IMG/VR virus record: IMGVR_UViG_3300006467_000563
Location: 4,337 to 68,336 of that record
Length of the DNA: 64,000 nucleotides
Direction: 5' to 3' (one strand)
DNA from: a virus
Lineage: Duplodnaviria; Heunggongvirae; Uroviricota; Caudoviricetes
Below are positions 6,503 to 27,146 of this stretch, piece by piece (the stretch's first letter is position 1; each line of letters begins with the position of its first letter). The position numbers were made by a program, and so were the translations under genes. Under the pieces are notes generated by a model. The model was not told the DNA's origin and did not search any database. It saw nothing but the letters and a program-made list of their open reading frames with translations.

Positions 6503-6904
6503 ATGAGTCCTAATATTGATGTAGACAGTCTGCAAGTAGGAGATGCTGTGGGACACCAGCCATCAGGTATATGGTATATGAATGCATCTTGTTATGTTAG
6601 CACAGTTGAACGGATGACTAAGACTCAGATTATTCTTGCAAATGGACGTAAGTTCAACAAACATGGCCGGGAATTAAAGTCTCCAGTGACAGATGTTCCA
6701 AGCCATAAATTGATTCATCCAGACTATGCTAGGGAATACATCGCAAAAGCAAAACGTAAGTCAGAAGTTTTTGCTATTCTTAAACAAGTCGAGGCTTTGT
6801 GTACTCGTGTTCGTAGCAACAGCTATGAGCTGTCAGACGAGCAGGAAGAACTGTTCTTTAATCTATTAATCAACTTTGAAACATGTGAGGACGACCAACA
6901 ATGA
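6503..6904 (+). CDS. hypothetical protein
   Basis: 133 aa; ATGA overlap with the downstream gene. Confidence 0.5.
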   Translation: MSPNIDVDSLQVGDAVGHQPSGIWYMNASCYVSTVERMTKTQIILANGRKFNKHGRELKSPVTDVPSHKLIHPDYAREYIAKAKRKSEVFAILKQVEALCTRVRSNSYELSDEQEELFFNLLINFETCEDDQQ

Positions 6905-7104
6905 TTTTCTGGTTCTGTGTATTTGCTTATTTTGTGTGTGGACTTACGTATGTTATTGGTATTGTTACATGTCCAGAACATATTGTAAAACATAGTATTT
7001 CTAAGTTAATTCTTGGATTTATTATTTCTCCAGTTTCGCTTGCTGCTTTTTTACTGGCGATTCCTCATTTTATTGTTTCCTCATTTTTACAGGCTATTGA
7101 CTAA
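6901..7104 (+). CDS. small membrane protein
   Basis: Two TM helices. Confidence 0.45.
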   Translation: MIFWFCVFAYFVCGLTYVIGIVTCPEHIVKHSISKLILGFIISPVSLAAFLLAIPHFIVSSFLQAID

Positions 7105-10053: not shown

Positions 10054-10545
10054 ATGAGTACAACACCTAAACTTGGCGAGCTAACAACTGAAACAGAGCG
10101 TGATGCCATCCACCTTGCAGTAATTCCGTTGATTGCCTCACATAACACGACACCGGGACAGAACGTTGGTCTGAACGAATACGGACAGGCAGATGCGGAT
10201 GCATACCCACATGTTGGTATTGTTGACCCATATTTGAAGAAGATGGTTTTCAAAGGACAGAAGATGTGGGTATGTTTGTATCCTGATACTGTAACTGGTA
10301 TGAAGCATCACTGGGAACATCCTGTATTCCGTAAACTGGAAGAGGCATATGGTGTACGTGCACCTGAAGCTACTCTTGAAGAGATAACTAAACTATCTGA
10401 AAATGAGTATGACTCAGAAGTGGACGACTTTGAAATTTGGTGCTGCGGGTCAGACGCACCGGAGCCTGAAGACAAATACGAAGAAGATGAAGACGACACT
10501 TGGTCGTGTTGTCCAGATGATGATGACGAATGGTCTTGCTGTTAG
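10054..10545 (+). CDS. paralog family X, copy 1 (conserved N-domain, acidic Cys-rich tail)
   Basis: Shares AxHxAxxP, PGQxVG, VxDPxL, KGxxxWxxxxP and HxWxHP blocks with 14491..15081 and 47554..48159; tail WCCGS...CCPDDDDEWSCC. Confidence 0.6.
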   Translation: MSTTPKLGELTTETERDAIHLAVIPLIASHNTTPGQNVGLNEYGQADADAYPHVGIVDPYLKKMVFKGQKMWVCLYPDTVTGMKHHWEHPVFRKLEEAYGVRAPEATLEEITKLSENEYDSEVDDFEIWCCGSDAPEPEDKYEEDEDDTWSCCPDDDDEWSCC

Positions 10546-11468: not shown

Positions 11469-12329
11469 ATGAAACTACTGATTCCAACATGTGATGCCAG
11501 CCTTTTTCTTCTGCCATTATATGAACACTTGTTTAACAAGTACGAGCTAGGTTCTATCTTTGAGCCTGTTGTACTTGGTTTTACTGAACCTAAAGATTGT
11601 GGTATGGAATTTGTGTCAATGGCAGACAAACAGGATTGTTGGTCCCGACATATATACGATTATCTCAATTCTATTTCAGATGAGTATGTAGCCTTCACTC
11701 TCGAAGACTTCTTGCCTGTAAGTAGAGTAGACGCTGAATCATTCCACTCATTGATGGCTGCAATGTTGTCTGGTAATGTTGGTCGTGCGGACCTAACGTG
11801 GGATTTGTATGCAAATTGTGAAACACAGGTATATAATACTCTTGAAGATAAACCTTACAGTTTAATCTCGTGTCCGCGTGACGGACGTATGGTAGAGGGT
11901 AAGTCTTTATATCGTATTACTACACAGCCTGCTATATGGCGACGTGATTACCTGATGAAGTTTCTGAAAAACGAATGGACACCTTGGAATTTTGAGATTG
12001 ATGGGTCTTCACTATCTTCTCAGTTCCCAGAGGAAGTTATCGGTATTTGTGACCCAACTTTTAAACATTATCCTACTAAATGGACGCCTAAAGGTGCGAT
12101 TAGTCGTGCTCAACCGGGAAAATTCAATTGCTTAGGGATGGATATTGAAACCATTAAAGAGTGTATTGAACTGGGATACTTAAAAGAGGAAGACTTAATC
12201 TGGGGCATGTGGGTTGGTAATCCAGTTACATTTCATGGTGGTGGTGGATATAACTTCACTGTAGATAGGATGCCTTTCCATTCTGCAAGTCCTACTAACT
12301 GGGAAGAATGGAGAAGTACTTATGAGTAA
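11469..12329 (+). CDS. hypothetical protein
   Basis: 286 aa. Confidence 0.55.
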   Translation: MKLLIPTCDASLFLLPLYEHLFNKYELGSIFEPVVLGFTEPKDCGMEFVSMADKQDCWSRHIYDYLNSISDEYVAFTLEDFLPVSRVDAESFHSLMAAMLSGNVGRADLTWDLYANCETQVYNTLEDKPYSLISCPRDGRMVEGKSLYRITTQPAIWRRDYLMKFLKNEWTPWNFEIDGSSLSSQFPEEVIGICDPTFKHYPTKWTPKGAISRAQPGKFNCLGMDIETIKECIELGYLKEEDLIWGMWVGNPVTFHGGGGYNFTVDRMPFHSASPTNWEEWRSTYE

Positions 12330-12561
12330 TATTCTATTAACATACTTTACATTTATGGCCATACTTGGATGGATATCTTTTGCTGTGCTATCAAATGAAT
12401 ATTTTGTACTTGAAAGTGATGAGGCCAAAGCTGGTGTAATTTTAGGTTCTATTTTTTGGCCAATCGGAATTTTTCTTGGTGTTTGCTATTGCATTTTTAA
12501 ATGTTTTATGGTATTTTACCGTCTGTACAATAAATATGCAACTAACTTTTTGAAAGACTAA
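12322..12561 (+). CDS. small TM protein, FWPIG-motif family
   Basis: Contains SIFWPIGIFLGV; TM helices. Confidence 0.5.
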   Translation: MSNILLTYFTFMAILGWISFAVLSNEYFVLESDEAKAGVILGSIFWPIGIFLGVCYCIFKCFMVFYRLYNKYATNFLKD

Positions 12562-12562
12562 G

Positions 12563-12775
12563 ATGACTGTTTACGAAAAATATCTAAAGGCATTAGATGA
12601 CTTAGAACAGATTCACAAAGCTGCTGTAGAAAGCCTCGACGCAATATTAGAGGCCGAACAAGAAGTCTGTAAACATAAATGGGGAGAAGTTAATCCTCAC
12701 ATGTTCTACGCATTAGGAAATACTGCTCCGGGTAAGAGTTGTATCGAGTGTGGTATGAAAGTCCATGTAAAGTGA
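12563..12775 (+). CDS. small zinc-ribbon protein
   Basis: CKHKW...CIECG. Confidence 0.45.
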   Translation: MTVYEKYLKALDDLEQIHKAAVESLDAILEAEQEVCKHKWGEVNPHMFYALGNTAPGKSCIECGMKVHVK

Positions 12776-12890
12776 CGAAAATTTTATATGAATCGCTCTT
12801 AGTTTTTCTAAGTTTATTCTATATCATACAGTTCATACTATTTATAGTGTACGCTTGGAAAGATAGCGAAAATCCTAATATGATTTCTGT

Positions 12891-13700
12891 ATGGAAGTGG
12901 GCACTTATATCCTCAACAATTTTAACTATTCTAATCAAGGTGTTAGTATGACAGACTTATATGAAAAGTACCATAACGAGATGATGAAGCATATCAATGA
13001 AAACAACATTGATAAAGAGGATGCTTATCAATTACTCGAAGCAGCAAAAGATTATTCTAATATGGAGCTGGAGCATGCTCTTAAGGTACTCGACTGGGAA
13101 GTTGGAGAGGTAAACCTAGACAGAGTTTACAACTTTGCACAAGATGCACATTCTGGTCAAACTAGGAAAGATGGTAAGACACCATATTTTAGACATCCTG
13201 TACAAGTACGCGACCTTTTGGTAAAATGGGGTGTTGAAAATACTAACATTCTTGCCGCTGCTCTTCTACATGATGTATTAGAAGATACAGACGTAACTGG
13301 CCCACAATTGAAAAAAGTTTCAAATGGTTTAGTATTAGATTACGTTTTACAGTTGACACACCATGAAGATGATGATAAGATTGAATATATCAGGGATTTT
13401 GCTAATATTCATTTAAAAAGCACTGAAGTAGTTCTTATTAAAGTAGCAGACCGTTGTTGTAACACGCTTGACTTTGTAAAGAGCGACCCAAAATATGCAG
13501 TAAAATATTGGAGAAAAGGGGAGCCTATTCTTGAAGGATTACGAGCACATATTTATAATTGTACATACGGTGATGGTTACCCCGGCCTTTTGCATTCACT
13601 ACAAAATGCGAAAAAGTTTGTTGATGTAATGTACCAGTTAATCTATGCTTTAGATTCTGTACAGGTTCGTAAGCGTGAAGTATATGATTTACTAAAATAA
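12891..13700 (+). CDS. HD-domain hydrolase, RelA/SpoT-type (p)ppGpp hydrolase-like
   Basis: HRHPVQV...AAALLHDVLEDT block matches the HD motif of SpoT/Mesh1-type hydrolases; no synthetase domain. Confidence 0.65.
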   Translation: MEVGTYILNNFNYSNQGVSMTDLYEKYHNEMMKHINENNIDKEDAYQLLEAAKDYSNMELEHALKVLDWEVGEVNLDRVYNFAQDAHSGQTRKDGKTPYFRHPVQVRDLLVKWGVENTNILAAALLHDVLEDTDVTGPQLKKVSNGLVLDYVLQLTHHEDDDKIEYIRDFANIHLKSTEVVLIKVADRCCNTLDFVKSDPKYAVKYWRKGEPILEGLRAHIYNCTYGDGYPGLLHSLQNAKKFVDVMYQLIYALDSVQVRKREVYDLLK

Positions 13701-13951
13701 TCAGACGGGTCTGCCCACAGGCGTCCTTATAAGGCGTTCCGCTTTAACAACAGTGGGAGGTTGCGGAAAGGTTCAATCCCTTGGCCTGTTATTTTTACTC
13801 TAGAAAGAAAAATGATGAAGTTATTATCGAAAGTATCAATGGTTTTAGCTGCATTAGTATACATATTTGATGGTATCAATTTTAGCGGTCCTGAACACTG
13901 TATGTATTTCATTGGTTTGGCAATCTACGATTCATTACAAAAGGATGAAGA

Positions 13952-14281
13952 ATGAAAGTTTTAATAATTCATCGTCAATGTGTGCAAGTTTGTTTAGTCG
14001 AAGAAGAGGGGCTGACAGACGAGCAAGTTTTTGAGAAAGCTATGAAGGTTGAGGGTTCTTCTCAGTTGACAGAGCCATTTGTTCCTACTAATATGAACGG
14101 TGACTCTTTTATTTTTGACTATGAATGTCATGAACCAACAGACGAGATTATTGCTCAGTACTTCACTAAACATGAGTACACAGAAGCGTTGCTCGATATT
14201 GAAGAGTCTAAGCGTATAGTTGAAAAACCAAAACGAAAATACCGGAAAAGAAAGAAAAAAGCAAATGAGCGTCCCTTATAA
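13952..14281 (+). CDS. hypothetical protein (basic C-terminus)
   Basis: 109 aa. Confidence 0.4.
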   Translation: MKVLIIHRQCVQVCLVEEEGLTDEQVFEKAMKVEGSSQLTEPFVPTNMNGDSFIFDYECHEPTDEIIAQYFTKHEYTEALLDIEESKRIVEKPKRKYRKRKKKANERPL

Positions 14282-14525
14282 ATTAGAGTGCGAAGTAGAA
14301 GTGTGTTCTGATATAGAAATGATTGAATGCGGCTTCAGACAGGAATGGGTTACAGCTAACATTGACGAAGATAGTGTTGATGTGACTAGTGGGGCAGGAT
14401 GTGGTAGTCCTTGGATGACCGCTACTATAAAAATTGGGGATAAGACTCATAATATCCGTTACAACATTAAAGATTTAATCAAAAAACTGTATGATAAAGC
14501 GAAAGAAGGTGAGTTCGATGAATGA
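14220..14525 (+). CDS. hypothetical protein
   Basis: 101 aa. Confidence 0.4.
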   Translation: MKNQNENTGKERKKQMSVPYKLECEVEVCSDIEMIECGFRQEWVTANIDEDSVDVTSGAGCGSPWMTATIKIGDKTHNIRYNIKDLIKKLYDKAKEGEFDE

Positions 14526-15081
14526 ACTAGGAAAACTGATTGAAGGTAGTGAGTGTCGTGATGCCGTACACGTTGCTATTATCCCTATGGAAGCCTCAGA
14601 GATGCTACGACCCGGACAAAGGGTAGGAATCGTCTCAGATGGCATTGCTGGGCCTTCTAGCAAGGCTCTGGGGGTTGTGGACCCGTTCCTCGATGACGTT
14701 GTACCAAAGGGAAAGCAATTTTGGCTGTGCCTCTTTCCAAACAGTATTAGTGATATGCGTCACGCATGGGTTCATCCTGATTTCAAAGATGATGTTGCGG
14801 AACATGTTGATGAGCACGTACAAGGTGTTATTGAAAATACAAAAGTTAAGCAAAAAGAAATCGAAGAATGGATGAAAAAACAGGCGGACATTCTTGGTTG
14901 TGATGTCTATGACCTGCTTGATATCAATGGAGATATTCTATCTGGTGAATATATCATTACTTATATGAATGAATCTGCTAGAGATTACTGGGCACAAATT
15001 TACAATGAATATCAAGAAAAAATCGAAGATTATCATGGTATCCCATTTGATGATATTGGTGGTTTTTCTTGTAGTTGCTAG
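14491..15081 (+). CDS. paralog family X, copy 2
   Basis: Same conserved blocks as 10054..10545; tail FSCSC. Confidence 0.6.
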   Translation: MIKRKKVSSMNELGKLIEGSECRDAVHVAIIPMEASEMLRPGQRVGIVSDGIAGPSSKALGVVDPFLDDVVPKGKQFWLCLFPNSISDMRHAWVHPDFKDDVAEHVDEHVQGVIENTKVKQKEIEEWMKKQADILGCDVYDLLDINGDILSGEYIITYMNESARDYWAQIYNEYQEKIEDYHGIPFDDIGGFSCSC

Positions 15082-15377
15082 GAGGTAACATGAGTGCTGA
15101 TAATTGGGGCGACTGCCCAAAATGTAAAGTACTGGTAGCTGAAAAGAACGCGGCAGAGATTGAGTCTGTAAATAAACTCTATGGAACGGTCACTGTCGAA
15201 GACTTTAAATATAAACTAAGTAGAGCCGGTTCCCATGAATATGAACATGGGACACTGCGTGAAGACTACCAGATTTGCACTACTAGTCATGGTCAATTTT
15301 ACATTGGTTATGAATGTTATTGTGCTAAATGTGGTTTCGAACATAAATTTAAACACAGTGAGGATATTAAACTATGA
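15075..15377 (+). CDS. zinc-ribbon protein
   Basis: CPKC...CAKCG. Confidence 0.45.
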   Translation: MLGGNMSADNWGDCPKCKVLVAEKNAAEIESVNKLYGTVTVEDFKYKLSRAGSHEYEHGTLREDYQICTTSHGQFYIGYECYCAKCGFEHKFKHSEDIKL

Positions 15378-15709
15378 ATTTTCAAGAAGCAATACAGGTT
15401 TTACGTGTTGGGGGACAAATCCGTAGACAATCATGGAATAACAAATCATATCGGTGGTTTGCGAGAACATTTGACGCTACAATTAGAAGTGCCTGCAATC
15501 AATATAAGTCTAACAATGCCGCCCTGATAAGTGTGGCTGACTGTGCTGCAGAAGATTGGGAAGAGTACAAGGAGCCTACTGAGGCGTTGGTAGAGCGTAT
15601 TGAAAAGTTGGTCGCTGCGTTCGAGCGAGGTGTAGTTCCGTCCGATATTAATACAGCGTACATCGTCAATGTTTTAAAACAGGCAGTCGAAGCTATAGAC
15701 GTACCGTGA
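15374..15709 (+). CDS. hypothetical protein
   Basis: 111 aa. Confidence 0.45.
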   Translation: MNFQEAIQVLRVGGQIRRQSWNNKSYRWFARTFDATIRSACNQYKSNNAALISVADCAAEDWEEYKEPTEALVERIEKLVAAFERGVVPSDINTAYIVNVLKQAVEAIDVP

Positions 15710-16156
15710 CCATATACGGACATAGCATTCGTCCATATCCTGAATTAACTGGGGGTTAAGACAGTTTTACAGTAAATTTCAACACTAGATAATGCGTGGC
15801 GAGATGTTAACAAGTATGTCCGACCCAGTTGTTGGCACAGAGCTAGGATTTGATTTTTATTTAATCTCTGATGGTCACGAGCCATCCGAACACCAACTCT
15901 AATTGGCTAGATTAGATTCTGTGAAGTTCCTACACCCAAGTCCACTGGAAGAAGGGCTTAATTTAGTTTAACCAGCGAATTTTTGAACTTAACGCAATTT
16001 ACTGTAAGCCAGATTATATATTGTATATAATATATTGTATATAATCCTATGTGAGCAAACCTTGCTCTATACTAGTTTAGTTTTTTCTTCTGATTAAAAC
16101 CAAACTTTTTCGGTGATTTCTATGGATTTTTTCAGACTTTTATTCTATCATGAAGT
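15710..16156. promoter_or_regulatory. long AT-rich intergenic region with a tandem repeat and hairpins (promoter or origin candidate)
   Basis: About 450 nt with no ORF; ATATATTGTATATAA repeated twice at 16016..16045; hairpin GAGCAA-ACC-TTGCTC. Confidence 0.4.
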
Positions 16157-16477
16157 ATGACTATTACAGAATACGTTGCAGAACACTACCCGAATCATAC
16201 TATTGTCTTCTCTACATGTAGTCCGAAGCTGCTTGAGAGTTACCTCGAATTGTATTCGTTGTGTGTCAGGGACTCTGATAATGACTATCGGCTATTCAGG
16301 CTGGATTATGACTTTTACGGAATGATTGCGATGGCTCTATTAATTGAAGACTGGCAACGTGACGATTTTGTTGATGAAATAGTGTCAAGACTATATAAAA
16401 TAGCTGTGGTTAGTAAAGATGCAGGCTACCACCTCGCTCTCTCACATCTGCATGAAAATGAACCTAGTAATAATTAG
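16157..16477 (+). CDS. hypothetical protein
   Basis: 106 aa. Confidence 0.45.
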   Translation: MTITEYVAEHYPNHTIVFSTCSPKLLESYLELYSLCVRDSDNDYRLFRLDYDFYGMIAMALLIEDWQRDDFVDEIVSRLYKIAVVSKDAGYHLALSHLHENEPSNN

Positions 16478-16715
16478 CAGGAGAAAAAAGATGAGTTGGT
16501 TTTTAGTTGTAGTTTATATTCTAGTAGTAGTCCCTATTGTATATGAGTGCTACCATGAAGATTCTCGTTCAATGGAAGAGATTGTTGGCAAATACACTTT
16601 GGCAGCATTGTGGCCTATCGCTGTATGTGCTCTTTTTATCGGAATAGTTGGCTCAGTGTACTACGAGATTTATTCTGACATTTCTGATAAAATTGACAAA
16701 GACTTGGAGAATTGA
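16419..16715 (+). CDS. small TM protein, FWPIG-like family
   Basis: ALWPIAVCALFIGIVG. Confidence 0.45.
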   Translation: MQATTSLSHICMKMNLVIISRRKKMSWFLVVVYILVVVPIVYECYHEDSRSMEEIVGKYTLAALWPIAVCALFIGIVGSVYYEIYSDISDKIDKDLEN

Positions 16716-16751
16716 TATTGACGAATCATTTTTTCCTGCTACAATGGAATT

Positions 16752-16949
16752 ATGATTACAAACCCAGTTTTGATGGAACTGTACGACGCGGCACTATGCT
16801 TTATTTTCATGTATCTTGGCATCTGCTGCATTTTTTGGTTTTCTGACTATCTAAAATCGAAGTCAGAAATGAAAGATGAATATGACTTCTCGAATGGGGA
16901 GCGTGGAAAATTTTACAATGAGAAGGAGAAAGAAGATGGCAGAAAATAA
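16752..16949 (+). CDS. small membrane protein
   Basis: 65 aa with a TM segment. Confidence 0.35.
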   Translation: MITNPVLMELYDAALCFIFMYLGICCIFWFSDYLKSKSEMKDEYDFSNGERGKFYNEKEKEDGRK

Positions 16950-17130
16950 CTCTAATTCTGGAGGTATCGGATTCTGCGGTTTGCTTGGTATCGTGTTTAT
17001 TACACTCAAGTTGACTGGATTTATTAACTGGTCTTGGTGGTGGGTTTTGGCACCGCTGTGGGGACCAATCGTGTTTGTGTTAGCTTTTCTGGCTATCGCT
17101 TTTGGAATCTTGTGGATGTTTGATAAGTAG
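16876..17130 (+). CDS. small membrane protein
   Basis: Two TM helices. Confidence 0.45.
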   Translation: MNMTSRMGSVENFTMRRRKKMAENNSNSGGIGFCGLLGIVFITLKLTGFINWSWWWVLAPLWGPIVFVLAFLAIAFGILWMFDK

Positions 17131-17665
17131 GACAATTATGGCTAAACCTTGGGTACACGCAAAGAACTCAGCTAGGAAATACGGTGGCGTTCCTGAAGAC
17201 TACATTGATATCCACAATCTTATGGATAATACAAAAGGAACACTGGCTGACAATAGACATAGAGCACTCACTCACAATTCTTGGTTCATCTCTTCTGGTG
17301 GACCGTTGGAGTTGATTTTTGGTGTTGTTATTACAAACTCTGACGGTAAGGAAGTTTCTGTCCGCGAGATTGGTGAGCAGCATATCCTTGAGGATTTCAG
17401 TATGAAGTTTATTCCTACCCCTCAAGATTGGCTTGCAGACATTCCTATGAGAGCGTGGATGAACAACGGAAAGTCTGATGTTCCTCCTAGTTTTAAACAA
17501 ATTGAAAGTCAAAAGCAAACTAAGTTCACGTCTTTTGGTGAAATTGATGGACGGTTCGATGAGGAATCGCAGCGTATTTTGGAACAACATGGATATATTG
17601 TGATTGATAATCCAGTATCACATGAACCAATTATTACAGAAAATTTTTACCCACATTCAGATTGA
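17102..17665 (+). CDS. hypothetical protein
   Basis: 187 aa. Confidence 0.5.
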   Translation: MESCGCLISRTIMAKPWVHAKNSARKYGGVPEDYIDIHNLMDNTKGTLADNRHRALTHNSWFISSGGPLELIFGVVITNSDGKEVSVREIGEQHILEDFSMKFIPTPQDWLADIPMRAWMNNGKSDVPPSFKQIESQKQTKFTSFGEIDGRFDEESQRILEQHGYIVIDNPVSHEPIITENFYPHSD

Positions 17666-17672
17666 GGAAAAT

Positions 17673-18134
17673 ATGGAACATTATTTAGCTGTTGTTGAAG
17701 CATCAAAAGCGTACGAAAAAGCAAAGCAATTGGTATTCGATGTATACTATGAATCTACTATCAAGAATTTAGAAAAGGCTTTTCAGGAGCTGTTTGATAC
17801 ATATCCTCAGTTGACTGCATTCGACTGGCGACAGTATGTTCCTTCATTTAATGATGGAGATGCATGTTATTTTACAGTCAATAACTGGGGAACATGTTGG
17901 TTCACTGTAGATGGAGTCACTTTTGATGTTGGCGACTATGCAGATTATGAAGAGTATGATTATAATACAGCTAAGTCTGTTCTAAAACAAAACGGACTTG
18001 ATGAGGTCGGTAACGAAATATGTTGCTTGATTGGTGCTGTTCCATATGATATCATGGAGAAGCGTTTTGGAACTTATTCTCATGTAAAGGTTACCCGTGA
18101 AGGAATTGAGGAGGATGAATACTATGATTATTAA
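17673..18134 (+). CDS. hypothetical protein
   Basis: Internal ATG with GAGGAAAATATG RBS inside ORF 17604..18134. Confidence 0.5.
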   Translation: MEHYLAVVEASKAYEKAKQLVFDVYYESTIKNLEKAFQELFDTYPQLTAFDWRQYVPSFNDGDACYFTVNNWGTCWFTVDGVTFDVGDYADYEEYDYNTAKSVLKQNGLDEVGNEICCLIGAVPYDIMEKRFGTYSHVKVTREGIEEDEYYDY

Positions 18135-18513
18135 TAAAGAAAATATCAACTCATATGAATACACTAACGTTATGGTAGGACCATTAACTTTTACCTTAAT
18201 TCCTTTTCTGATTGGTGCTTTACCTATTATATTTGAATCACCAACATTCTTGTGGTTTGCTTTCTGGTCATTCCTCTTGTTTTTTCTTTCTGCTTTATTT
18301 GGATTTATTGCCGGATGCATTGGGCTTTCTAGTACTGGTGGATATGGCAATGATATGCTAGTAGATAGAATTCCACGCTCTGAATCAATCACGTATATTG
18401 TCTGTTGTACTATCTTTCCTTTACTGTGGATTGCTCTATTTATTGGATGTGTAAAAGGATTGTTACGGCCACTGTCACATATTTTTAAGTCTTTGATGAA
18501 GGAAGAAAAATGA
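18097..18513 (+). CDS. small TM protein, FWPIG-like family
   Basis: TIFPLLWIALFIGCV; ATGA overlap with the downstream gene. Confidence 0.5.
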   Translation: MKELRRMNTMIINKENINSYEYTNVMVGPLTFTLIPFLIGALPIIFESPTFLWFAFWSFLLFFLSALFGFIAGCIGLSSTGGYGNDMLVDRIPRSESITYIVCCTIFPLLWIALFIGCVKGLLRPLSHIFKSLMKEEK

Positions 18514-19718
18514 ACAGGCGAGAATTTTTAGGTGTAACTAGCTTAGGTGTACTTGGTGTCGGTCTTAGTTTCGGTAATGTATCTGTTTCTGAAGAGCAGA
18601 AGAAAAAGGGGAGCGTGATTTACATCACACTTGGTGGTGGTGCTTCACACGTTGAGTTCTTCAATCCTGCTCCAGATGCTCCATCAGAGTATCGCTCAGT
18701 TACTGGTAACATCTATACTAATACGCCGGGATTACACTTTGGTAGTCTTATGCCTAATCTGGCCAAAATGTCAGACCAGTTTACAGTAGTAAAATCATTC
18801 ACTCATCGTGACTTCAACCACGCTAGTGCAACACACTTAGTTCAAACAGGAAAATATAATACACGTACTCCTGATACACAAACATGGCCAAGTTATGGGA
18901 GTGTTGTAAGCGAACAACTTGGTGCTGTTGGTAAGACTGGGCTACCTAGTTATATCAAACTGAACAAGACAGACCATGACGGGGCTGCTTGGCTAGGATT
19001 AGACCATTCTGGTTTCAATGCATCTAAGGAAGGTTTAGGCGACATGATTATGAAGGTGTCCGAAGAGAGATTCCTTCGCCGTGAGCAAATGTTGTCAGAG
19101 ATTGATAAGAGTGGCAATATTCGTGACCCTTGGCTTAAGTTGCGTGACCAAGCTGTGGGTGTTTTAATGGGTGATGCATCAAAAATCTTCAACATTACCA
19201 AAGATACGATGTACAATGACTATAAAGACTCTCAGTTCGGCAAAGACTTGTTAACTGCCAGACGTCTTGTTCAAGGTGGAGCTGCTTTTGTTAAAGTCAG
19301 TAATCCGGGCTGGGATATGCACTCTAATATCGAGTCTGGACTAAAATCTAAACAAGGTGAGATTGATAAGTATCTTGCTATCCTTATTTCTGACTTAGAG
19401 AATAAGGGTCTTAATGAAGACGTGTTAGTTGTATTCACCACAGAGTTTGGAAGGACACCGAAGATTAATCCTCAGTCTGGACGTGACCATTGGGCAAAAG
19501 TGTGTAATCTGATGCTTTATGGTGGAAGATACAACGGTGGATTCATTGGAGAAGTTGACAGAACCTCAAGTGAGGTAGTTAGCGAACCAGTAACACCTGC
19601 TGACTTATGTAAGACTGTGCTAGACCATTGTGGTATTGCTGACAATGCACATACTATTGATAATTTGCAACGTCCTAGAATGTTTGTAGAAGATACAGCT
19701 AAAATAATTGGAGTATGA
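18510..19718 (+). CDS. Tat-signal protein, DUF1501-like
   Basis: MNRREFLGVTSLGVLGVG twin-arginine leader; PGWDMHSN block resembles the GWDTH motif of DUF1501. Confidence 0.5.
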   Translation: MNRREFLGVTSLGVLGVGLSFGNVSVSEEQKKKGSVIYITLGGGASHVEFFNPAPDAPSEYRSVTGNIYTNTPGLHFGSLMPNLAKMSDQFTVVKSFTHRDFNHASATHLVQTGKYNTRTPDTQTWPSYGSVVSEQLGAVGKTGLPSYIKLNKTDHDGAAWLGLDHSGFNASKEGLGDMIMKVSEERFLRREQMLSEIDKSGNIRDPWLKLRDQAVGVLMGDASKIFNITKDTMYNDYKDSQFGKDLLTARRLVQGGAAFVKVSNPGWDMHSNIESGLKSKQGEIDKYLAILISDLENKGLNEDVLVVFTTEFGRTPKINPQSGRDHWAKVCNLMLYGGRYNGGFIGEVDRTSSEVVSEPVTPADLCKTVLDHCGIADNAHTIDNLQRPRMFVEDTAKIIGV

Positions 19719-19980
19719 TATGAGTACTATTATCTGGTTTTTTGTAATTTCTTGCATACTTAGTCTTGTATTTTTTCTGCTGGCCTGCTATTATCTTAAT
19801 ATGGGACACGGCAATAGAAAAATAATTGACAGCTACACTCGTTATCAAGTGTGCAAGATTATTGCTGGTTCAATTTTTTGGTGGGTTACTTTTTTTGTTG
19901 TGATTCGTAAGTGCTATACATCAATAAGCAAACCAGTGACAAACGTGTTTAAATATGTCGTAGGAGATAATGATGAATAA
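19708..19980 (+). CDS. small TM protein, FWPIG-like family
   Basis: GSIFWWVTFFVV. Confidence 0.45.
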   Translation: MEYDMSTIIWFFVISCILSLVFFLLACYYLNMGHGNRKIIDSYTRYQVCKIIAGSIFWWVTFFVVIRKCYTSISKPVTNVFKYVVGDNDE

Positions 19981-20329
19981 AGTTGATGGTGATTTGATTG
20001 GTCCTTGGGTGTGTACTGTATTATTGAATCTAATTGTATCTCTTATTGTTGTGGCTATATGTGCTCCAGTATCGACAATCGTAGGGTTTTTAATTTTATT
20101 CTCTGTCTGGTTTATTCCATCTGGTATTATTTGCTTTGTGTTTTCTGCACATGAAATCACGGCGAATAGTAATCATTATACAAAAAAAGACGCTTGGGAA
20201 ATTAGCTTATTTTCACTTTTTTGGCCAATTGGTATTATGATTTTATTAACGTATGCTTTGATTCTAGCATGCAAGCCAATTGGTGGACTTTTACAGAAGT
20301 TGGGGTTGCAAGATGAACGTACCAAATAA
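19970..20329 (+). CDS. small TM protein, FWPIG-motif family
   Basis: FSLFWPIGIMILL. Confidence 0.5.
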   Translation: MMNKVDGDLIGPWVCTVLLNLIVSLIVVAICAPVSTIVGFLILFSVWFIPSGIICFVFSAHEITANSNHYTKKDAWEISLFSLFWPIGIMILLTYALILACKPIGGLLQKLGLQDERTK

Positions 20330-20840
20330 AGATTATGTTATAATCAATGCCCTTTTTGGGTTTTTCCCATTAGTTTTATTTTTTTTATTTTGTATCATAT
20401 TCTTGTTCTTGGATATTGGCTTGCCGTTATTTGTACTCTTGTTGTTATTTGTCATTGCAGCTTATAGTGCAAGCGTGATATCACTTATTGTCTCTGCATG
20501 TTATCATATACATACTTCAAGAGTAGACTATGACCTTGAAAAACCTCGACTTGATGATTACAGAGACGGTTATGACCACGATTGGGGTAAATACAATGTT
20601 GATGTAGCAGAATATGAAGCTACAAGAAAATATGCACCAATCGAAAAAATGAGTAGAACAGACGTTATTAAACTAATGGTTACATTGACATTTTGGCCAG
20701 TATTTGTGTTAAAATGTATTTTTGACTGGCTTGTATCATTATTTAACCCAATTATCAAAACTTTTGTTTATATTATAGGAGAAAAGAATGAAGGCGATTC
20801 GGATGCCGAAGATAGAACAGTTTCGGACAGTAGTCAGTAA
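20280..20840 (+). CDS. TM protein, FWPIG-like family (longer member)
   Basis: TLTFWPVFVLKC; several TM helices. Confidence 0.5.
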   Translation: MVDFYRSWGCKMNVPNKDYVIINALFGFFPLVLFFLFCIIFLFLDIGLPLFVLLLLFVIAAYSASVISLIVSACYHIHTSRVDYDLEKPRLDDYRDGYDHDWGKYNVDVAEYEATRKYAPIEKMSRTDVIKLMVTLTFWPVFVLKCIFDWLVSLFNPIIKTFVYIIGEKNEGDSDAEDRTVSDSSQ

Positions 20841-21852
20841 CATCAAGCGTACAGCTCAATTTGTTGGGCTGGATGAAAATGGAGATGCTATTGTTGATAG
20901 AGATGCCAAGATGCCAACAGTTACTTTTACTGGTACTGTAAAACTACATGGAACTAATGCATCTATTGTAAGAACTTCTGATGGTCAGATTTATCCCCAG
21001 TCTAAGACTAATGTTATTAGCATGGAAAAAGATAATGCTGGCTTTGCTCAGTTTGTCCACTCTAATCACGAAGTACTTAAGGACATGTTGGACTGTATTG
21101 CATACGACCTAGAACGCAATGCAGCTATGTATAAAACTCCATGTGAGTTTGACCCTGAGTCTAGTATTACAGTTTATGGAGAATGGGCTGGTGGAAACAT
21201 TCAAAAAGGATGTTCTTTAAATGGTCTAGATAAGATGTTCTTCATTTTTGCTTGTAAAGTTACCCCAAACGATGAAGAAAAGCAGTCTTACTGGATTCAA
21301 TCTGGGCATCAACATATTAGACCAAGCCGACACGATGACATCAATACTCATAACATTTATGACTTTGATACATATACAATTGATATCGATTTTAACGAGC
21401 CGGACTTATTTACTGAAGAGCTTGAGCGTATCACTCTTGCTGTAGAGGAAGAGTGTCCTGTCGCTAAGATGTTCGGTGTCGAGAAAGGTGTTGGTGAGGG
21501 TGTAGTATGGACTGGTTGGTACAATGGTAACATCTATAGATTCAAGGTTAAGGGAGAAAAGCACTCAGTAACTAAGGTTAAGAAGTTGGTTGTTGTAGCT
21601 CCTGAAAAGATTGAGTCTATGCAAAAGTTTGTTGAGTATGCCTGCACGCGTAACCGTTATGAGCAGGCCATCAATGAAGTTATCGGTGATGAAGAAAAGG
21701 CGATGAACCGTCTTGGTGATGTCATTCGATGGGTCCAGAAAGATATTATTGATGAAGAAACTGATGTTTTGACTGAATCTGGCTTGACACACAAAGATGT
21801 AGCGAGTAGAATTGCTACACAGGTCAGAACATGGTATCAGTCTGAATTATAA
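20788..21852 (+). CDS. ATP-dependent RNA ligase (Rnl2-like nucleotidyltransferase)
   Basis: KLHGTNASI matches the KxHGxN adenylylation motif of the Rnl2 family; true start may be an internal ATG. Confidence 0.6.
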   Translation: MKAIRMPKIEQFRTVVSNIKRTAQFVGLDENGDAIVDRDAKMPTVTFTGTVKLHGTNASIVRTSDGQIYPQSKTNVISMEKDNAGFAQFVHSNHEVLKDMLDCIAYDLERNAAMYKTPCEFDPESSITVYGEWAGGNIQKGCSLNGLDKMFFIFACKVTPNDEEKQSYWIQSGHQHIRPSRHDDINTHNIYDFDTYTIDIDFNEPDLFTEELERITLAVEEECPVAKMFGVEKGVGEGVVWTGWYNGNIYRFKVKGEKHSVTKVKKLVVVAPEKIESMQKFVEYACTRNRYEQAINEVIGDEEKAMNRLGDVIRWVQKDIIDEETDVLTESGLTHKDVASRIATQVRTWYQSEL

Positions 21853-21869
21853 AAAAATGGAGAGTAACT

Positions 21870-22067
21870 TTGAGTTTAATATTTGAAAGTATTGATTCTG
21901 AAGGAAATGACGCTGAGATGCGTGCTACAAGAGTTCCATATGGAACTGATAGGCGTGATAGATTACGTATTAGCGTTTCTCTTCCGTGGAACGATGGTCC
22001 ACGTGACATTGAACTCACTAGAAAACAAGCCGATGAACTAGTTAAACTGATTGGAGAAATGCAATGA
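21870..22067 (+). CDS. small hypothetical protein
   Basis: 65 aa. Confidence 0.4.
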   Translation: MSLIFESIDSEGNDAEMRATRVPYGTDRRDRLRISVSLPWNDGPRDIELTRKQADELVKLIGEMQ

Positions 22068-22387
22068 TTATTGACAGTAAAACAAAACGTGTAGTTGACT
22101 GCTTTCGTTCAGACGACTATGCTGGACTTGAGTATGGTGACTATGCCTTCTATTATGGTTACGAAGAGACTGTTCCTAAGCACGATTTAGAAAATGGTGA
22201 GTGGGCTTTCGTTGCCGACTACAAAGGTAATGAGTTGTGTCGTCTGACTGTAGATGATTTTAAAGAATATGTTTGTAGAAATACATTCGAAAGGCTTGAC
22301 AAATGGAATGTTGAGCATGTATTATTAACCGGAGTTGGAATTGTTTTAAATAACGAAAAATTTCACCCAGAAAGAAAGGCAATGTAA
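22064..22387 (+). CDS. hypothetical protein
   Basis: 107 aa; ATGA and TAATG overlaps. Confidence 0.45.
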   Translation: MIIDSKTKRVVDCFRSDDYAGLEYGDYAFYYGYEETVPKHDLENGEWAFVADYKGNELCRLTVDDFKEYVCRNTFERLDKWNVEHVLLTGVGIVLNNEKFHPERKAM

Positions 22388-22743
22388 TGAAATGTTTCCC
22401 AGAATCAGTTGGCGTTTTTGGTCCCGTTTTGTCCCTCACAGCAAGTTTAATTTGTTTTGTAACTCTATTTGAGGCTAGTCTCATTGGTGTACTGTTTTTG
22501 CTGGTTGCAATCAGTTGCTTCAATTTGTTAGCTGCGATTCTATTTTTTACTTCTGAGTCATTATGTAGTAGTAGTCCACGTATTAATGATTACAATAAAG
22601 TTACAGTTGCTACAGTATTATTTTCTTCTGTATGCTGGCCAATCGGAATCTTAATTGGACTATTTGCTCTGCTCAAAGTTGCTGCAGGACCACTTATGTT
22701 AGTTGTTAATAAGTTTGCAGATACTAAGTCAGATACAGAGTAA
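22387..22743 (+). CDS. small TM protein, FWPIG-motif family
   Basis: SVCWPIGILIGLF. Confidence 0.5.
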   Translation: MKCFPESVGVFGPVLSLTASLICFVTLFEASLIGVLFLLVAISCFNLLAAILFFTSESLCSSSPRINDYNKVTVATVLFSSVCWPIGILIGLFALLKVAAGPLMLVVNKFADTKSDTE

Positions 22744-22771
22744 AATCTCAATTATATAGAAAGAATTAAAA

Positions 22772-23896
22772 GTGAAACCAGTTAAAATTTACGCTGAAAA
22801 TATTGAAGAGACAGCATTAGAGCAGTTTAATTCAGCTTTAGAGTTGGATTGTGTCACTCGTGCTGCACTTATGCCTGACGCTCATACTGGGTACAGCCTA
22901 CCAATTGGTTCTGCTGTTGAGTCTGACCAGATTGTTTTTCCAAGTTGGGTTGGATATGATATCGGTTGTGGTATGTCTGCAATCCCCACCAGCTTCACGA
23001 AAGAAAAGGTAGAACAGAACTCAAAAGATATTTTTCATCAGATTTATCGTGATGTTCCTACTGGATTCACTGAGCATGACGATAAGCAGTTTTGGAATGA
23101 GGCTACTCATTTCGATGCTACACCTGAGCTAGAAGAACGATTCTGGACTGGAAATGCACAGAACCAGCTTGGTACTCTTGGTGGTGGTAACCACTTCATT
23201 GAAGTAGGATACGATGAGAACAATCAGGTATGGATTATCATTCACTCTGGTTCTCGTAAGCTGGGACATCGTACTGCTGAGCGATATATGAAAATTGCTG
23301 CTGGACAGGACCCAGAAGACCGGAAGAAAGCAAAAGAAGGTCACTACGGTTTCGCTGTTGATTCAGAAAATGGTGAGAATTACATCAAGGACTTGAATTA
23401 CTGTTTACAGTATGCTTTAGCAAACCGTCGTCATATGATTGAGAATGTTATTCAAAGCATCTCACGTAAAGTAGGTGGCGGCTATGGAGAATGGGACCGT
23501 TTCATCAATCGTAACCACAACCATGCCGAGGACCGTAAAGACGATGGTAAATGGATTCATCGTAAGGGTGCTACACATGCTGAGAGTGGCATGGACGGTG
23601 TTATTCCGGGCAATATGCGTGATGGTTCCTTCATCGTAGTTGGTAAGGGTAATCCAGACTCTCTGTATTCCAGTTCTCATGGAGCTGGGCGTGTACTCTC
23701 TCGTAGTAAGGCACGTAAGACTCTGAATGTCGATGACTTCGTTAAAGATATGGAAGGTATCACTGCTCGCGTTGAAGAGAAAACTCTTGATGAGTCTAGT
23801 AGTGCCTATAAAAACATCTTTGAGGTGATGGACCTACAGAAAGACTTAGTCAATGTTGTTACTCACGTCAAGCCAATTATCAATGTGAAGGGATAA
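22772..23896 (+). CDS. rtcB: RNA-splicing ligase RtcB (3'-phosphate/5'-OH RNA ligase)
   Basis: YDIGCGMS, GGGNHFIEV and NHNHAED blocks typical of RtcB; GTG start. Confidence 0.8.
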   Translation: MKPVKIYAENIEETALEQFNSALELDCVTRAALMPDAHTGYSLPIGSAVESDQIVFPSWVGYDIGCGMSAIPTSFTKEKVEQNSKDIFHQIYRDVPTGFTEHDDKQFWNEATHFDATPELEERFWTGNAQNQLGTLGGGNHFIEVGYDENNQVWIIIHSGSRKLGHRTAERYMKIAAGQDPEDRKKAKEGHYGFAVDSENGENYIKDLNYCLQYALANRRHMIENVIQSISRKVGGGYGEWDRFINRNHNHAEDRKDDGKWIHRKGATHAESGMDGVIPGNMRDGSFIVVGKGNPDSLYSSSHGAGRVLSRSKARKTLNVDDFVKDMEGITARVEEKTLDESSSAYKNIFEVMDLQKDLVNVVTHVKPIINVKG

Positions 23897-24056
23897 TAAT
23901 GGAAATTGGAACTGACCATGATGGCAATAAAATAGAGATGAATGTCAAAAAGGAAAGTGATGCAGTCTACCGATTCACTGTCGGGAATCATGGCGTATAC
24001 ACTAATATAGATGGTATATTGAGAATCATCGACTATATAAAAGAAAGTATCTCAGA

Positions 24057-24449
24057 ATGAAAATTTTAAATGAATTAAAAAATGATGCAGAGACGCGATG
24101 TTTCTTCTTCTGGTTTGGATTACTTGTAACAGCAATTGGTTTTGGATTGGCGGCCATTGCCACTAGCTTGATTTTTTTCTTGCCAAAATTATTGACTTTG
24201 GTTTTGTGTTTTGCCATGGTTTGTCCTTTTCTCGGATTTGTGTTTGCCTGTTTGATTACTCATGATACTCGTGAATCAGAAACAAGAGAAGAGGTTGGTG
24301 CAGTATTACTTGTATGTACTTTTTATCCCATTACATGGTTATATATTGTAGTTTCTGCTATATTTCCATTGTTTAACAATTTTATGTACTGCCTCAAGTC
24401 AATGAGAGATACAGTAATGTATGTAATTGAAGGGAAAACAGATGAATAA
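24057..24449 (+). CDS. small TM protein, FWPIG-like family
   Basis: CTFYPITWLYIVV. Confidence 0.5.
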   Translation: MKILNELKNDAETRCFFFWFGLLVTAIGFGLAAIATSLIFFLPKLLTLVLCFAMVCPFLGFVFACLITHDTRESETREEVGAVLLVCTFYPITWLYIVVSAIFPLFNNFMYCLKSMRDTVMYVIEGKTDE

Positions 24450-24909
24450 GTTCTGGTATGGAATTTCTGTAACATTTGTTTTGTGTGTTGTTGGAGTATT
24501 TTCACATGCTGAACCTATCGATGCACCAAAACCTTTTGTTTCAGAACAAGTCAATTTTGGCATTATATTTCCGGGTAAGGTAATTAATGTTGTTGATGGT
24601 GATACAGTTGATGTAGAAGTAAGACGCGTAATCCGTATTCGTATGTTAGACTGTTGGGCACCAGAATCACGCACAAAAGATTTAGCAGAGAAAAAAGAGG
24701 GTCTGGAAGCAAAGGCTGAGCTGGCAAAAATTATTAGTGGTCGCAAAGTAGTCGTACAGGTTCCTATTGGTAGAGATGCTAGATTTGGTGAGTCTATGAC
24801 TTTTGACCGTGTTCTTGGACGAATTATTGACGAAGAAACACGTCTTGATTACTCTAAGTATATGGTACAGCACGGCTTCGCAACTAAAAATAAGGAAAAA
24901 GATGATTAA
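24427..24909 (+). CDS. secreted staphylococcal-nuclease-like (SNase/thermonuclease fold) nuclease
   Basis: Signal peptide; VVDGDTVDV...RMLDCWAPE block typical of the SNase family. Confidence 0.6.
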   Translation: MKGKQMNKFWYGISVTFVLCVVGVFSHAEPIDAPKPFVSEQVNFGIIFPGKVINVVDGDTVDVEVRRVIRIRMLDCWAPESRTKDLAEKKEGLEAKAELAKIISGRKVVVQVPIGRDARFGESMTFDRVLGRIIDEETRLDYSKYMVQHGFATKNKEKDD

Positions 24910-25510
24910 ATACGTTAAAGGGGACTTATTTGATTTTGTCAATCAGACTGAATCGGAATACGATGTTACTTTTATTCCACATATTGTCAATACGTATGGA
25001 TATTGGGCGTCTGGTTTTGTTTGTGCAGTAGAGTCACATTGCCCAGCAGCCAAGAGTCGTTATGACTCCTTGTTTGAAGGCGTTCATGCTCCATATGATT
25101 ACGGCGAAGCAAATAAATGGCTTCTAGGTATGAACCAGATTGTGTTCACCAACACTCGGAGTACTGCAATTATCAATATGTTCGCTCAGTTATTCGGTGG
25201 TGATAGACCATTAAGATACAATGCACTTACAAAGTGTATGGATAGCATAGGAGACTCAGTGCAGACATCTGAACATAAAGTTCGCATTGTAGCTCCTATG
25301 TTTGGGAGCCTTCGGGCTGGAGGAAATTGGGATTTTATTGAGAAATTAGTAGAAGATTGCTGGATTTCTCGCGGTATTGATACTACAATAGTAGAGTACA
25401 TACACAAACAAATTAAGAGTCAATGCCAAAAGTGCAACAAACAAGAGAAGCCTTTGTTTCGTATGTCAAATACTTTGTATTACTGTAGGGAATGTTATTC
25501 AGAAAGGTAG
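24902..25510 (+). CDS. macro-domain-like protein (ADP-ribose binding/processing) with C-terminal zinc ribbon
   Basis: Internal ATG with AAGGAAAAAGATG RBS. Layout KGDLF..(about 25 aa)..IPHIVN then GYWASGF loosely recalls the N-terminal region of macro domains (DIT...VN..N..L..GGGV), without the GG-rich loop; tail CQKCN...CREC. Confidence 0.45.
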   Translation: MIKYVKGDLFDFVNQTESEYDVTFIPHIVNTYGYWASGFVCAVESHCPAAKSRYDSLFEGVHAPYDYGEANKWLLGMNQIVFTNTRSTAIINMFAQLFGGDRPLRYNALTKCMDSIGDSVQTSEHKVRIVAPMFGSLRAGGNWDFIEKLVEDCWISRGIDTTIVEYIHKQIKSQCQKCNKQEKPLFRMSNTLYYCRECYSER

Positions 25511-25866
25511 TCATGGACTATAAATTAGCAGATGCTATTCAAACAACACTCTTTTGGGTCGGATTAGGTGTATTTGTTCTGTGTTTTCTGGCATGTACCC
25601 CTATACCATTTATACTCATAACATGGCCAATCTTAGCTATTATTTCTTCTACTTATTATTGTATTGGGCTAGTAGCAAAAAAAAGATATGATGATGTACC
25701 AAGAGATATTGAACAGGTTACTAAACTAGAAGTTATTACGATTCTTTTTTGCTGCTTTTTCTGGCCAGTTGCTTTGCCCTGTTTGGGGGTATATCTAATC
25801 GGATGCATGATATCTTTTCTATGCAAGCCATTTAAAGAGGTGTTTGAATTTTTAATTAAGGAGTAG
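25492..25866 (+). CDS. small TM protein, FWPIG-like family
   Basis: CCFFWPVALPCLGVYLIGC. Confidence 0.5.
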   Translation: MLFRKVVMDYKLADAIQTTLFWVGLGVFVLCFLACTPIPFILITWPILAIISSTYYCIGLVAKKRYDDVPRDIEQVTKLEVITILFCCFFWPVALPCLGVYLIGCMISFLCKPFKEVFEFLIKE

Positions 25867-25868: not shown

Positions 25869-27146
25869 ATGCTTGAGTGGCTGACAACTTATTATACAGA
25901 CTTTATCGCATTCAGTAAATCAAATCCTTTATTTGCCGGTATTATAAGTGTTTGGGGATTAGGAGTTGTAACATTCTGTTTACGGACTGTTCCGAGTAAA
26001 ATTTTTAATTTCATTTACAGACAGTGTACTACCAACTTAGTTCTTAATAGTTACGATAGTATCTATCATGAGTTCTTACAATGGGTGTCTGAAAACAATA
26101 TGCACTCATTTGTGCGTGACCTTAACTTCAATAATAGAGGCGTGTGGAGTGAAGGTGTTCCAATGATTAGCATAGGATATGGGAAAACGATTTTCCTATT
26201 CAAGAGACGACTCTTCGTTCTTCATAGATTCAAAGAAGAAGCTAATCAGACAATGAGACCGAAAGAAACAATCAAGATTACTTTGATTGGTAGGTCGCAT
26301 CAAATTTTTAGTGAGCTATTCGATGTTATACATGAAAGTCAGGAAGAAGAAAACTCAATCAGCGTCCATACTTGGAAAGAGGGATGGAATTACACTGCTT
26401 ATCAACCAAAGCGTGATTTAGATACTGTAGTTGTAGAAGAACATATTAAACAAGATATTCTCACCTGTATTGATAATTTCATTGGTGATTCTGATTGGTA
26501 TTTTAAAAATGGAATACCATATCATCTTGGGATTATGTTTCATGGACCAAGTGGAACAGGTAAGACGAGCTTAATCAAAGCTATCTGTGCTAAATATGAC
26601 CGTCCATTATATATTATTCATCTTTCTAGAATGAGCGATGATACTCTTGAAACAGCTTTGGCTGAGATTCCTATCGGTGCTGTGGTTGCAATCGAAGATA
26701 TTGACACCGCTAACTTAGGTAAAAGAAATATCAGTAATAAAATTACGACAATTAAACAAAGTGGTACAATGTCTCTTGTTCGAGGAACGAGCCATGGAGA
26801 CTCTGAGGCTTCTTTGACACTCGGTGGTGTATTAAATGCTCTTGATGGAATTACTACATCAGAAGGTAGAATTTTAATTGCTACCACTAATGTTTTAGAC
26901 TCGCTTGATGAGGCGTTAATTCGCCCCGGAAGATTTGATTTGACAAAAGAAATAGGTTATATGACAGACGATACTCTACGTACGTACTTGGGAAGATTTT
27001 ATCCGTATGATTTTTCCAAATGGTGTGTTAATGACAATGTTAAACCTTGTGATGTTCAGAAGTTAGTTTTTGATAACCGTAACTCGCCTGACAATGTACT
27101 TGCAGCAGTGGCACATAGGTGTGATAATGGAGGACTTGAAGATTGA
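25869..27146 (+). CDS. AAA+ ATPase, BCS1-like
   Basis: N-terminal TM anchor; Walker A GPSGTGKTS; ATTNVLDSLDEALIRPGRFD second region of homology. Confidence 0.7.
   Translation: MLEWLTTYYTDFIAFSKSNPLFAGIISVWGLGVVTFCLRTVPSKIFNFIYRQCTTNLVLNSYDSIYHEFLQWVSENNMHSFVRDLNFNNRGVWSEGVPMISIGYGKTIFLFKRRLFVLHRFKEEANQTMRPKETIKITLIGRSHQIFSELFDVIHESQEEENSISVHTWKEGWNYTAYQPKRDLDTVVVEEHIKQDILTCIDNFIGDSDWYFKNGIPYHLGIMFHGPSGTGKTSLIKAICAKYDRPLYIIHLSRMSDDTLETALAEIPIGAVVAIEDIDTANLGKRNISNKITTIKQSGTMSLVRGTSHGDSEASLTLGGVLNALDGITTSEGRILIATTNVLDSLDEALIRPGRFDLTKEIGYMTDDTLRTYLGRFYPYDFSKWCVNDNVKPCDVQKLVFDNRNSPDNVLAAVAHRCDNGGLED

Follow-up and report, generated by a model that had tools for sequence, protein, structure and literature searches.

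A multigene family of small predicted membrane proteins in an accessory region of an uncultured large phage

Imm and Sp, superinfection-exclusion or immunity proteins of the large lytic phage T4, are small and sit in the inner membrane. Their genes lie among accessory ones, and the class of proteins to which they belong evolves fast. To our knowledge, both are single-copy and no multigene expansion of either has been described. The genomes of T4-type phages contain plastic and hyperplastic regions, in which small, fast-evolving accessory open reading frames (ORFs) are packed densely amid auxiliary enzyme genes and content is shuffled between relatives. As far as we know, phage genomes seldom keep many old paralogs. 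Here we describe a family of small predicted membrane proteins that is present in several diverged copies in a 64-kb window of an uncultured-phage record (IMGVR_UViG_3300006467_000563, positions 4,337 to 68,336; "the window" is this whole stretch of 64,000 nucleotides). The copies, named A to I in their order along the DNA, lie at 12322-25866 (Table 1).

The family is new at the level of sequence; the class it belongs to is familiar, namely small membrane proteins that large phages encode as accessory functions. By its small size, probable membrane location, accessory setting and fast evolution it may be likened to Imm and Sp. The likeness is one of kind, as the T4 Imm family (PF14373) was absent from the Pfam matches at E ≤ 1 of all 36 family sequences analyzed. 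The locus resembles the T4-type plastic regions in its packed small, fast-evolving ORFs and enzymes and in the shuffling of genes between relatives that we observed. It differs from them in that most of the small ORFs of its core (18-26 kb) belong to one paralogous family.

The genes of the window are all on the + strand and tightly packed, with a GC content of ~38%. Megablast against 50,697 phage records found no close relatives of the region. The largest related metagenomic contig is 165.6 kb, and we therefore take the window to be an accessory region of an uncultured large phage.

A shared C-terminal module

We found that eight small ORFs of the window form a genuine paralogous family. The initial annotation, made from the sequence alone, had proposed at least ten small proteins of a family that it did not recognize, with a motif resembling Phe-Trp-Pro-Ile-Gly (FWPIG) in the last transmembrane (TM) helix. 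The ORFs it listed are present where it placed them and carry the motifs it quoted. Pairwise BLAST similarity among the copies of the window was weak (best E 3e-6 in a 14-sequence database). We built hidden Markov models (HMMs) of the C-terminal ~50 amino acids (aa), each without the protein to be tested, and scored the left-out protein and 2000 shuffles of it. The eight left-out members scored 14.9-23.9 bits, compared to at most 12.2 bits for the best shuffle. An HMM of all eight, run against 1058 six-frame ORFs of the window, matched these eight alone (63-80 bits). The next ORF reached 7.3 bits, and reversed-sequence decoys 8.9 bits at best. When iterated over related loci, the HMM settled on 37 ORFs with the same order of motifs in all, and one further locus (L018) added five. 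A multiple alignment of 36 family sequences was clean. Alignment and HMMs together indicate a similarity extending well beyond the five-residue motif.

One listed ORF (start 16419; copy B) scored low, with 3.1 bits in the leave-one-out test and 6.2 bits against the iterated HMM. It aligns with its positional counterpart in a related locus (L007 8077-8319; BLASTP E 5e-5), which is itself a significant member (36.7 bits). Because of this homology to a clear member we count B as a member, probably a degenerate copy that has lost its tail. B retains an ALWPIA helix and lacks the Pro hinge and amphipathic tail described below. Its ratio of nonsynonymous to synonymous substitution rates (dN/dS) against the close relative is 0.05.

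Two further ORFs, named in the initial annotation as possible members, do not belong to the family. The hydrophobic ORF at 6901 gave no signal with the family HMM in six-frame scans. The ORF at 16876 did not match the family HMM either and belongs to phrog_1374. Like the family, the phrog_1374 product counts among the small TM proteins of this region and is kept in the same phages; unlike the family, it carries a WSWWWVLAPLWGP motif.

The shared module is ~50 aa long and forms the C-terminus. First comes the charged loop [ST]-[KR]-x-[ED]-[VI], then a hydrophobic TM helix that is long and has F-W-P about ten residues in (variants are FWW, FYP and IFP). A second Pro, mostly in the form K/E-P, lies ~17 residues after F-W-P and is a likely hinge. 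Beyond it the sequence is amphipathic, with a conserved Phe at the fifth position past the hinge Pro, and the module closes with Gly-Glu/Asp followed by a tail that is short and acidic. The preceding TM helix commonly ends in a Cys ('ACYY', 'ACYHIH', 'ACLITHD'). The N-terminal part varies. By hydropathy analysis, A and D have one TM helix in this part and the other members a TM hairpin. The sizes first reported (67-186 aa, with two to four TM helices) were revised to 74-175 aa and two to three TM helices, because gene calls in the relatives favor shorter starts for B, C, D, F and I (Table 1). An AlphaFold2 (AF2) model of copy I has helices at residues 3-28, 30-59 and 71-116 (confidence score, pLDDT, 81.8), and in this model the F-W-P helix and the tail are predicted to form one long helix.

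Individual copies depart from this scheme in places. A has MVFYRLY in its tail in place of KPxxxxF. D-type proteins, found in every lineage examined, share 16 invariant columns, including Ser, Cys and Tyr within the first TM helix. These invariant positions argue for specific helix packing over a generic anchor. F contains a charged loop of ~55 aa with a CYHIH motif.

Table 1. Members of the family, neighboring enzyme genes and two excluded ORFs (positions in the window)
Feature	Coordinates	Strand	Length (aa)	Start in initial annotation	Leave-one-out (bits)	Description	Identical database proteins (=), orthologs and homologs
A	12322..12561	+	79	12322	22.8	One N-terminal TM helix plus FWPIG helix	L003 4573-4812; L007 3303-3545 and 3545-3793
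B	16491..16715	+	74	16419	3.1	Probable degenerate copy	Positional homolog L007 8077-8319
C	18124..18513	+	129	18097	14.9	Three TM helices	= P0002; ortholog P0007 (61% identity)
D	19720..19980	+	86	19708	19.6	Two TM helices; FWW variant	Orthologs in every lineage examined
E	19970..20329	+	119	19970	20.4	Three TM helices	Best matches L007 12616-12969 and P0013; partial ortholog in L017
F	20313..20840	+	175	20280	19.2	TM hairpin plus module	P0009, P0017, L007 12969-13469, L010 10813-11322
G	22387..22743	+	118	22387	15.9	28 nucleotides upstream of RtcB gene	= P0004; ortholog in L001 (48% identity)
H	24057..24449	+	130	24057	23.9	TFYPIT variant; overlaps SNase start by 8 nucleotides	= P0001; P0006, P0012, P0014, L007 14584-14979
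I	25513..25866	+	117	25492	22.3	Stops 2 nucleotides before BCS1-like AAA gene	= P0003; ortholog in close relative only
DUF1501 protein	18510..19718	+				PF07394, E 2.9e-70; RRxFL twin-arginine signal read from sequence
RNA ligase (Rnl)	20788..21852	+				PF09414, E 6.7e-10
RtcB RNA ligase	22772..23896	+				PF01139, E 2.3e-90
SNase-like nuclease	24442..24909	+				PF00565, E 6.6e-4, just under the curated cutoff; start from the relative's gene call
BCS1_N plus AAA ATPase	25869..27146	+				PF08740, E 1.8e-21; PF00004, E 2.3e-15
Small TM protein, non-member	16936..17130	+		16876		phrog_1374, E 1.9e-24 over residues 19-80
Hydrophobic ORF, non-member	6901..7104	+	67	6901		No family-HMM match in six-frame scans

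We found the family in about five independent lineages, which belong to one syntenic clade of uncultured large phages. The first comprises the window and a relative ~83% identical to it in nucleotides (L001, L002 and L017; "the close relative" below). The others are SRR12022142_2332 (L007 and L013), SRR20820733_2233 (L003), NILS19-1 scaffold_100 (L010) and SRR31654858_90939 (L018). Searching 1.84 billion representative proteins exhaustively with an HMMER profile gave 15 matches at E ≤ 0.001. Fourteen of these have the architecture of the family; the fifteenth, a repeat protein, is a false positive. When 5.8 billion clusters were searched with a word index, two orthologs were recovered besides the proteins of the window itself, and no others. 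A second such search started from the 36-sequence alignment; hydrophobic words dominated it, and it brought back only 5 known proteins. Searches of IMG/VR, with F-type and D-type alignments among the queries, and of 185,579 GTDB species genomes found no family, and a scan of JGI metagenomes returned the window's own fragment alone.

The family does indeed appear to be undescribed, with no consistent match in Pfam, PHROGs, NCBIfam or the PDB. Scans of all members against the first three and a profile search of the PDB gave scattered sub-threshold matches to unrelated membrane proteins only, and fold searches gave generic helices only. Literature searches for comparable families of small membrane-protein paralogs in phages returned nothing relevant. 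The family thus adds a defined, searchable entry to the 'dark matter' of phage genomes. Its distribution is very narrow, and the number and age of its paralogs are unusual for a phage.

Evolution, gene order and operon packing

The family genes evolve faster than the enzyme genes around them. Against the close relative, dN/dS was 0.24 for C, 0.40 for G, 0.32 for H and 0.125 for I, at 48-77% amino acid identity. The genes for RtcB, the DUF1501 protein, the SNase-like nuclease and a phosphatase-like protein had dN/dS of 0.03-0.10 and 81-98% amino acid identity. Values of 0.13-0.40 indicate that the family genes are real and constrained, yet fast-evolving relative to the enzymes.

The copies arose by old tandem duplication. 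Best-hit clustering placed A, C, D, E, F, G and H in orthogroups that are each found in two to four further lineages; I is confined to the lineage of the window. Because these orthogroups are common to several lineages, the duplications must be older than the split of the lineages, and the paralogs have been retained individually. All lineages also have an array that begins with D and ends with F. Its order is D-E-F in the window, D-135-E-F in L007, D-C-E-F in L003 and D-133-144-F in L010, the numbers standing for ORFs without a letter. Adjacency of one member to another was significant by permutation in L003 (p=0.012) and L010 (p=0.002).

We found that the tail of most members, in all lineages, contains a Shine-Dalgarno site for the following gene. 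The Gly-Glu codons at the end of the module (GGAGAA or GGAGAG) lie 5-8 nucleotides upstream of the next ATG, and the stop codon of the member lies 8-17 nucleotides inside the next gene, regardless of whether that gene encodes an enzyme or a further member. Two constraints thus act on the tail, as protein and as ribosome-binding site, which explains both its conservation and the overlaps. Each copy would be translationally coupled to the gene behind it, be this a further copy or an enzyme gene that came to lie at the junction. Gaps of -53 to +28 nucleotides occur at nearly every junction of the region, including those between genes outside the family. F overlaps the Rnl gene by 53 nucleotides and C the DUF1501 gene by 4. 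A scan for promoters and terminators gave counts at chance level, and we found no repeated promoter or stem-loop cassette at the junctions, just the short junction of Shine-Dalgarno site and ATG. DNA repeats at cassette boundaries were likewise absent; the sole repeat consists of the FWPIG codons common to A, E and G.

It had been suggested that each copy abuts an enzyme gene, as a repeated module of one TM protein and one enzyme. The abutment holds for only five of the nine copies (C, F, G, H and I). Of the remaining four, D and E precede further members of the family, A precedes a gene for a 70-aa protein, and an intergenic gap lies behind B. Counted from the enzymes, 5/8 recognizable ones in the window are immediately preceded by a member, a nominal enrichment (permutation p=0.014). 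There was no such enrichment in L003 (p=0.64), L007 (p=0.34) or L010 (zero cases, p=1.0), and the four p-values combined to ~0.17 (Fisher). In L018, five members form an unbroken run followed by small ORFs, with no enzyme behind any of them.

The partners also swap between lineages. RtcB is preceded by G in the window, by F in L007 and, in L003, by a 132-aa protein that has only the motif. F precedes Rnl in the window and L003, RtcB in L007 and a 64-aa ORF in L010. Upstream of the DUF1501 gene lies C in the window and L007; in L003 this place is taken by a G-type copy and in L010 by Rnl. The SNase-like nuclease and the AAA ATPase have no member upstream in L003 and L018; in L010 the nuclease has none and the locus has no AAA ATPase. 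Across the lineages, the motif and the D to F array recur and the pairing with enzymes is not conserved.

These results bear on the proposal that each TM protein is a dedicated partner of the enzyme encoded downstream, which it would tether, chaperone, export or provide with immunity. The enrichment in the window is as this proposal predicts. The pairs C-DUF1501, F-Rnl, G-RtcB and H-SNase are held in the close relative, and some of them in one more lineage. The Tat signal of the DUF1501 protein, the signal-like N-terminus of the SNase-like nuclease and the BCS1-type anchor of the AAA ATPase make a connection with the membrane conceivable. Nevertheless, we consider dedicated partnership unlikely. 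Enrichment was limited to the window, enzymes change paralog from lineage to lineage, and 4/9 copies of the window have no enzyme behind them. For Rnl and RtcB, both RNA ligases of the cytoplasm, a membrane partner would serve no evident purpose, and the overlaps are accounted for by the embedded Shine-Dalgarno site rather than by functional pairing. Conserved one-to-one modules of paralog and enzyme are not supported. An apparent module of this kind can come from operon packing alone, a caution for annotation by guilt of association.

Possible roles at the host membrane

Our preferred explanation is that the window encodes an undescribed multigene family of membrane proteins, with eight solid copies and one degenerate copy, packed into an operon and acting in host takeover or exclusion. 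We give this explanation as a whole a probability of roughly 0.6. We are highly confident of the part that concerns the family, its evolution and its operon packing. The functional part, host takeover at the level of the membrane, is tentative.

The proteins would insert in the host cytoplasmic (inner) membrane. The shared C-terminal module could mediate insertion, homo- or hetero-oligomerization, or both. The variable N-terminal helices and loops, such as the CYHIH loop of F-type proteins, would give every paralog its own target. Action in host takeover might then consist of blocking superinfection, of blocking membrane-embedded defense effectors, or of some other change to the envelope. Four to ten or more diverged copies are retained in every lineage of the clade. 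This number of copies, with an evolution several-fold faster than that of the enzymes, points to an interaction with the host at the membrane under diversifying pressure. The context is consistent with such a role, since the surrounding genes are of accessory or counter-defense type (RtcB, Rnl, HD, Tad2-like, ThyX and sugar-modification genes).

Several points weigh against this explanation. We infer the role in takeover or exclusion solely from the architecture of the proteins, their fast evolution, the number of paralogs and the genomic setting. The AF2 model of copy I has a low predicted template modeling score (pTM, 0.35), making its helix packing uncertain, and counts of Lys and Arg are similar on both sides of the membrane. 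In addition, a member or member-like ORF comes before RtcB in 4/4 lineages that have this gene, and before the DUF1501 gene in 4/5. With only five independent lineages to compare, it is conceivable that the family has some loose link in function to RNA-repair enzymes or exported ones.

The paralogs might be specificity subunits that co-assemble, through the C-terminal hairpin, into a membrane complex built by the phage. Two versions fit the data. In one, the complex is a battery of inhibitors, each directed against a different membrane-embedded defense effector of the host. In the other, it is a translocon or anchor that works with the BCS1-like AAA ATPase to place the folded DUF1501 protein and the nuclease in the envelope. 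If this reading were true, the recurrent placement of members upstream of RtcB and DUF1501, which is not specific to a paralog, would reflect co-translational delivery at the membrane. TatA, TatE and TatB offer a possible analogy. They have a similar order of elements (TM helix, hinge, amphipathic helix and charged tail) and are a precedent for co-assembling paralogs, and a protein with a Tat signal is encoded beside copy C. However, the TM helix of TatA is N-terminal and is followed by an F-G hinge, whereas the module of the family is C-terminal, after one or two TM helices, and has a K/E-P hinge. No member matched the TatA/E/B family (PF02416) in Pfam scans. Overall, we regard a complex of either kind as improbable.

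Pore formation appears equally improbable. Proteins like holins or antiholins, or other pore formers, would oligomerize through the conserved helix and set the timing of lysis or let folded phage enzymes pass to the periplasm. The family does have the general architecture of holins. It resembles class I (three TM helices, lambda S105) and class II (two TM helices, S21) in size, number of TM helices and charged C-terminal tail. However, no member matched a holin family in Pfam or PHROGs. The sole holin match (PF07332, E 0.0099) falls on ORF 16876, the phrog_1374 protein. Screens against Pfam and PHROGs of window ORFs, mostly those of at least 100 aa, found no structural or lysis family, and endolysin, lysozyme, amidase and spanin families were absent both from these ORFs and from the precomputed Pfam calls of the related loci. 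Holins and antiholins come as one or two genes per genome, compared to four to ten or more anciently diverged copies, or 8-10 old paralogs, per genome here, and the copies lie among accessory, RNA-repair and nucleotide-metabolism genes rather than in a lysis cassette.

A last idea is that there is no real family, and that small ORFs without common origin share the motif through their hydrophobic composition. It could draw on the shortness of the motif and the weak pairwise BLAST scores, but it is refuted by leave-one-out scores far above those of shuffled, real-ORF and reversed decoys, by the same ordered module in 36 sequences from five lineages, by database matches down to E 1e-12 among 1.84e9 proteins, and by orthologs kept in the relatives with dN/dS below 1.

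Neighboring genes and further observations

Accessory genes recognized by Pfam in the window encode an HD_4 protein, the DUF1501 protein, the RNA ligase, RtcB, the SNase-like nuclease, the BCS1_N plus AAA ATPase and ThyX. Further genes encode glycosyltransferases, an epimerase, SSB, a GNAT protein, a nucleoside deoxyribosyltransferase and a protein with a Tad2-like anti-Thoeris domain. The DUF1501 protein, a 286-aa protein and a 765-aa protein had no relatives by tblastn against the 50,697 phage records.

The gene for the 286-aa protein (11469-12329, +) is part of the most conserved adjacency of the family. A-type copies always lie behind a gene for a protein of 286-288 aa, whose stop overlaps the A-type start by 8 nucleotides in three lineages. 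The 286-aa protein has no Pfam family.

The phrog_1374 gene adjoins family genes in most related lineages. In the window, it is followed by two genes (17102-18134, +), for a 187-aa phrog_8143 protein and a 176-aa protein. Both are missing from the close relative (L002), where copy C comes directly after the phrog_1374 gene, indicating a recent insertion or deletion at the boundary of a family gene.

Phage-borne DUF1501, of the sulfatase-like superfamily, was present in most related lineages examined and was not seen in L018. In the window, the N-terminus of the SNase-like nuclease is hydrophobic and resembles a signal (MNKFWYGISVTFVLCVVGVFSHA). The L003 homolog (17000-17347) has 115 aa and begins straight at the nuclease fold. 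The difference between the two N-termini suggests that an export signal was gained or lost. Of the proteins searched against the phage records, the BCS1-like AAA protein alone had homologs, in 198 records and at ~30% identity. Most of these phages are jumbo phages, with Pseudomonas, Erwinia, Ralstonia and Serratia as hosts. As a rule, the homologs are annotated as hypothetical.

The Tad2-like (Thoeris anti-defense 2) domain is in a 111-aa protein (15374-15709, +; PF11195, E 6.7e-8, above the curated cutoff), and L018 has three Tad2-like genes in tandem. A separate pair of paralogs in the window (10054-10545 and 14491-15081, both +) is 41% identical over 94 aa (E 8e-26). Their C-terminal tails are rich in Cys (WSCC and FSCSC, respectively), and neither has a Pfam family. 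A 224-aa protein (7104-7778, +) contains the ferredoxin-like domain of Api92-like proteins (PF18406, E 8.6e-8). Finally, ThyX is split by an intein (Intein_splicing plus NUMOD4) in L007 (17367-19205); the ThyX gene of the window (27143-28096) is intact.

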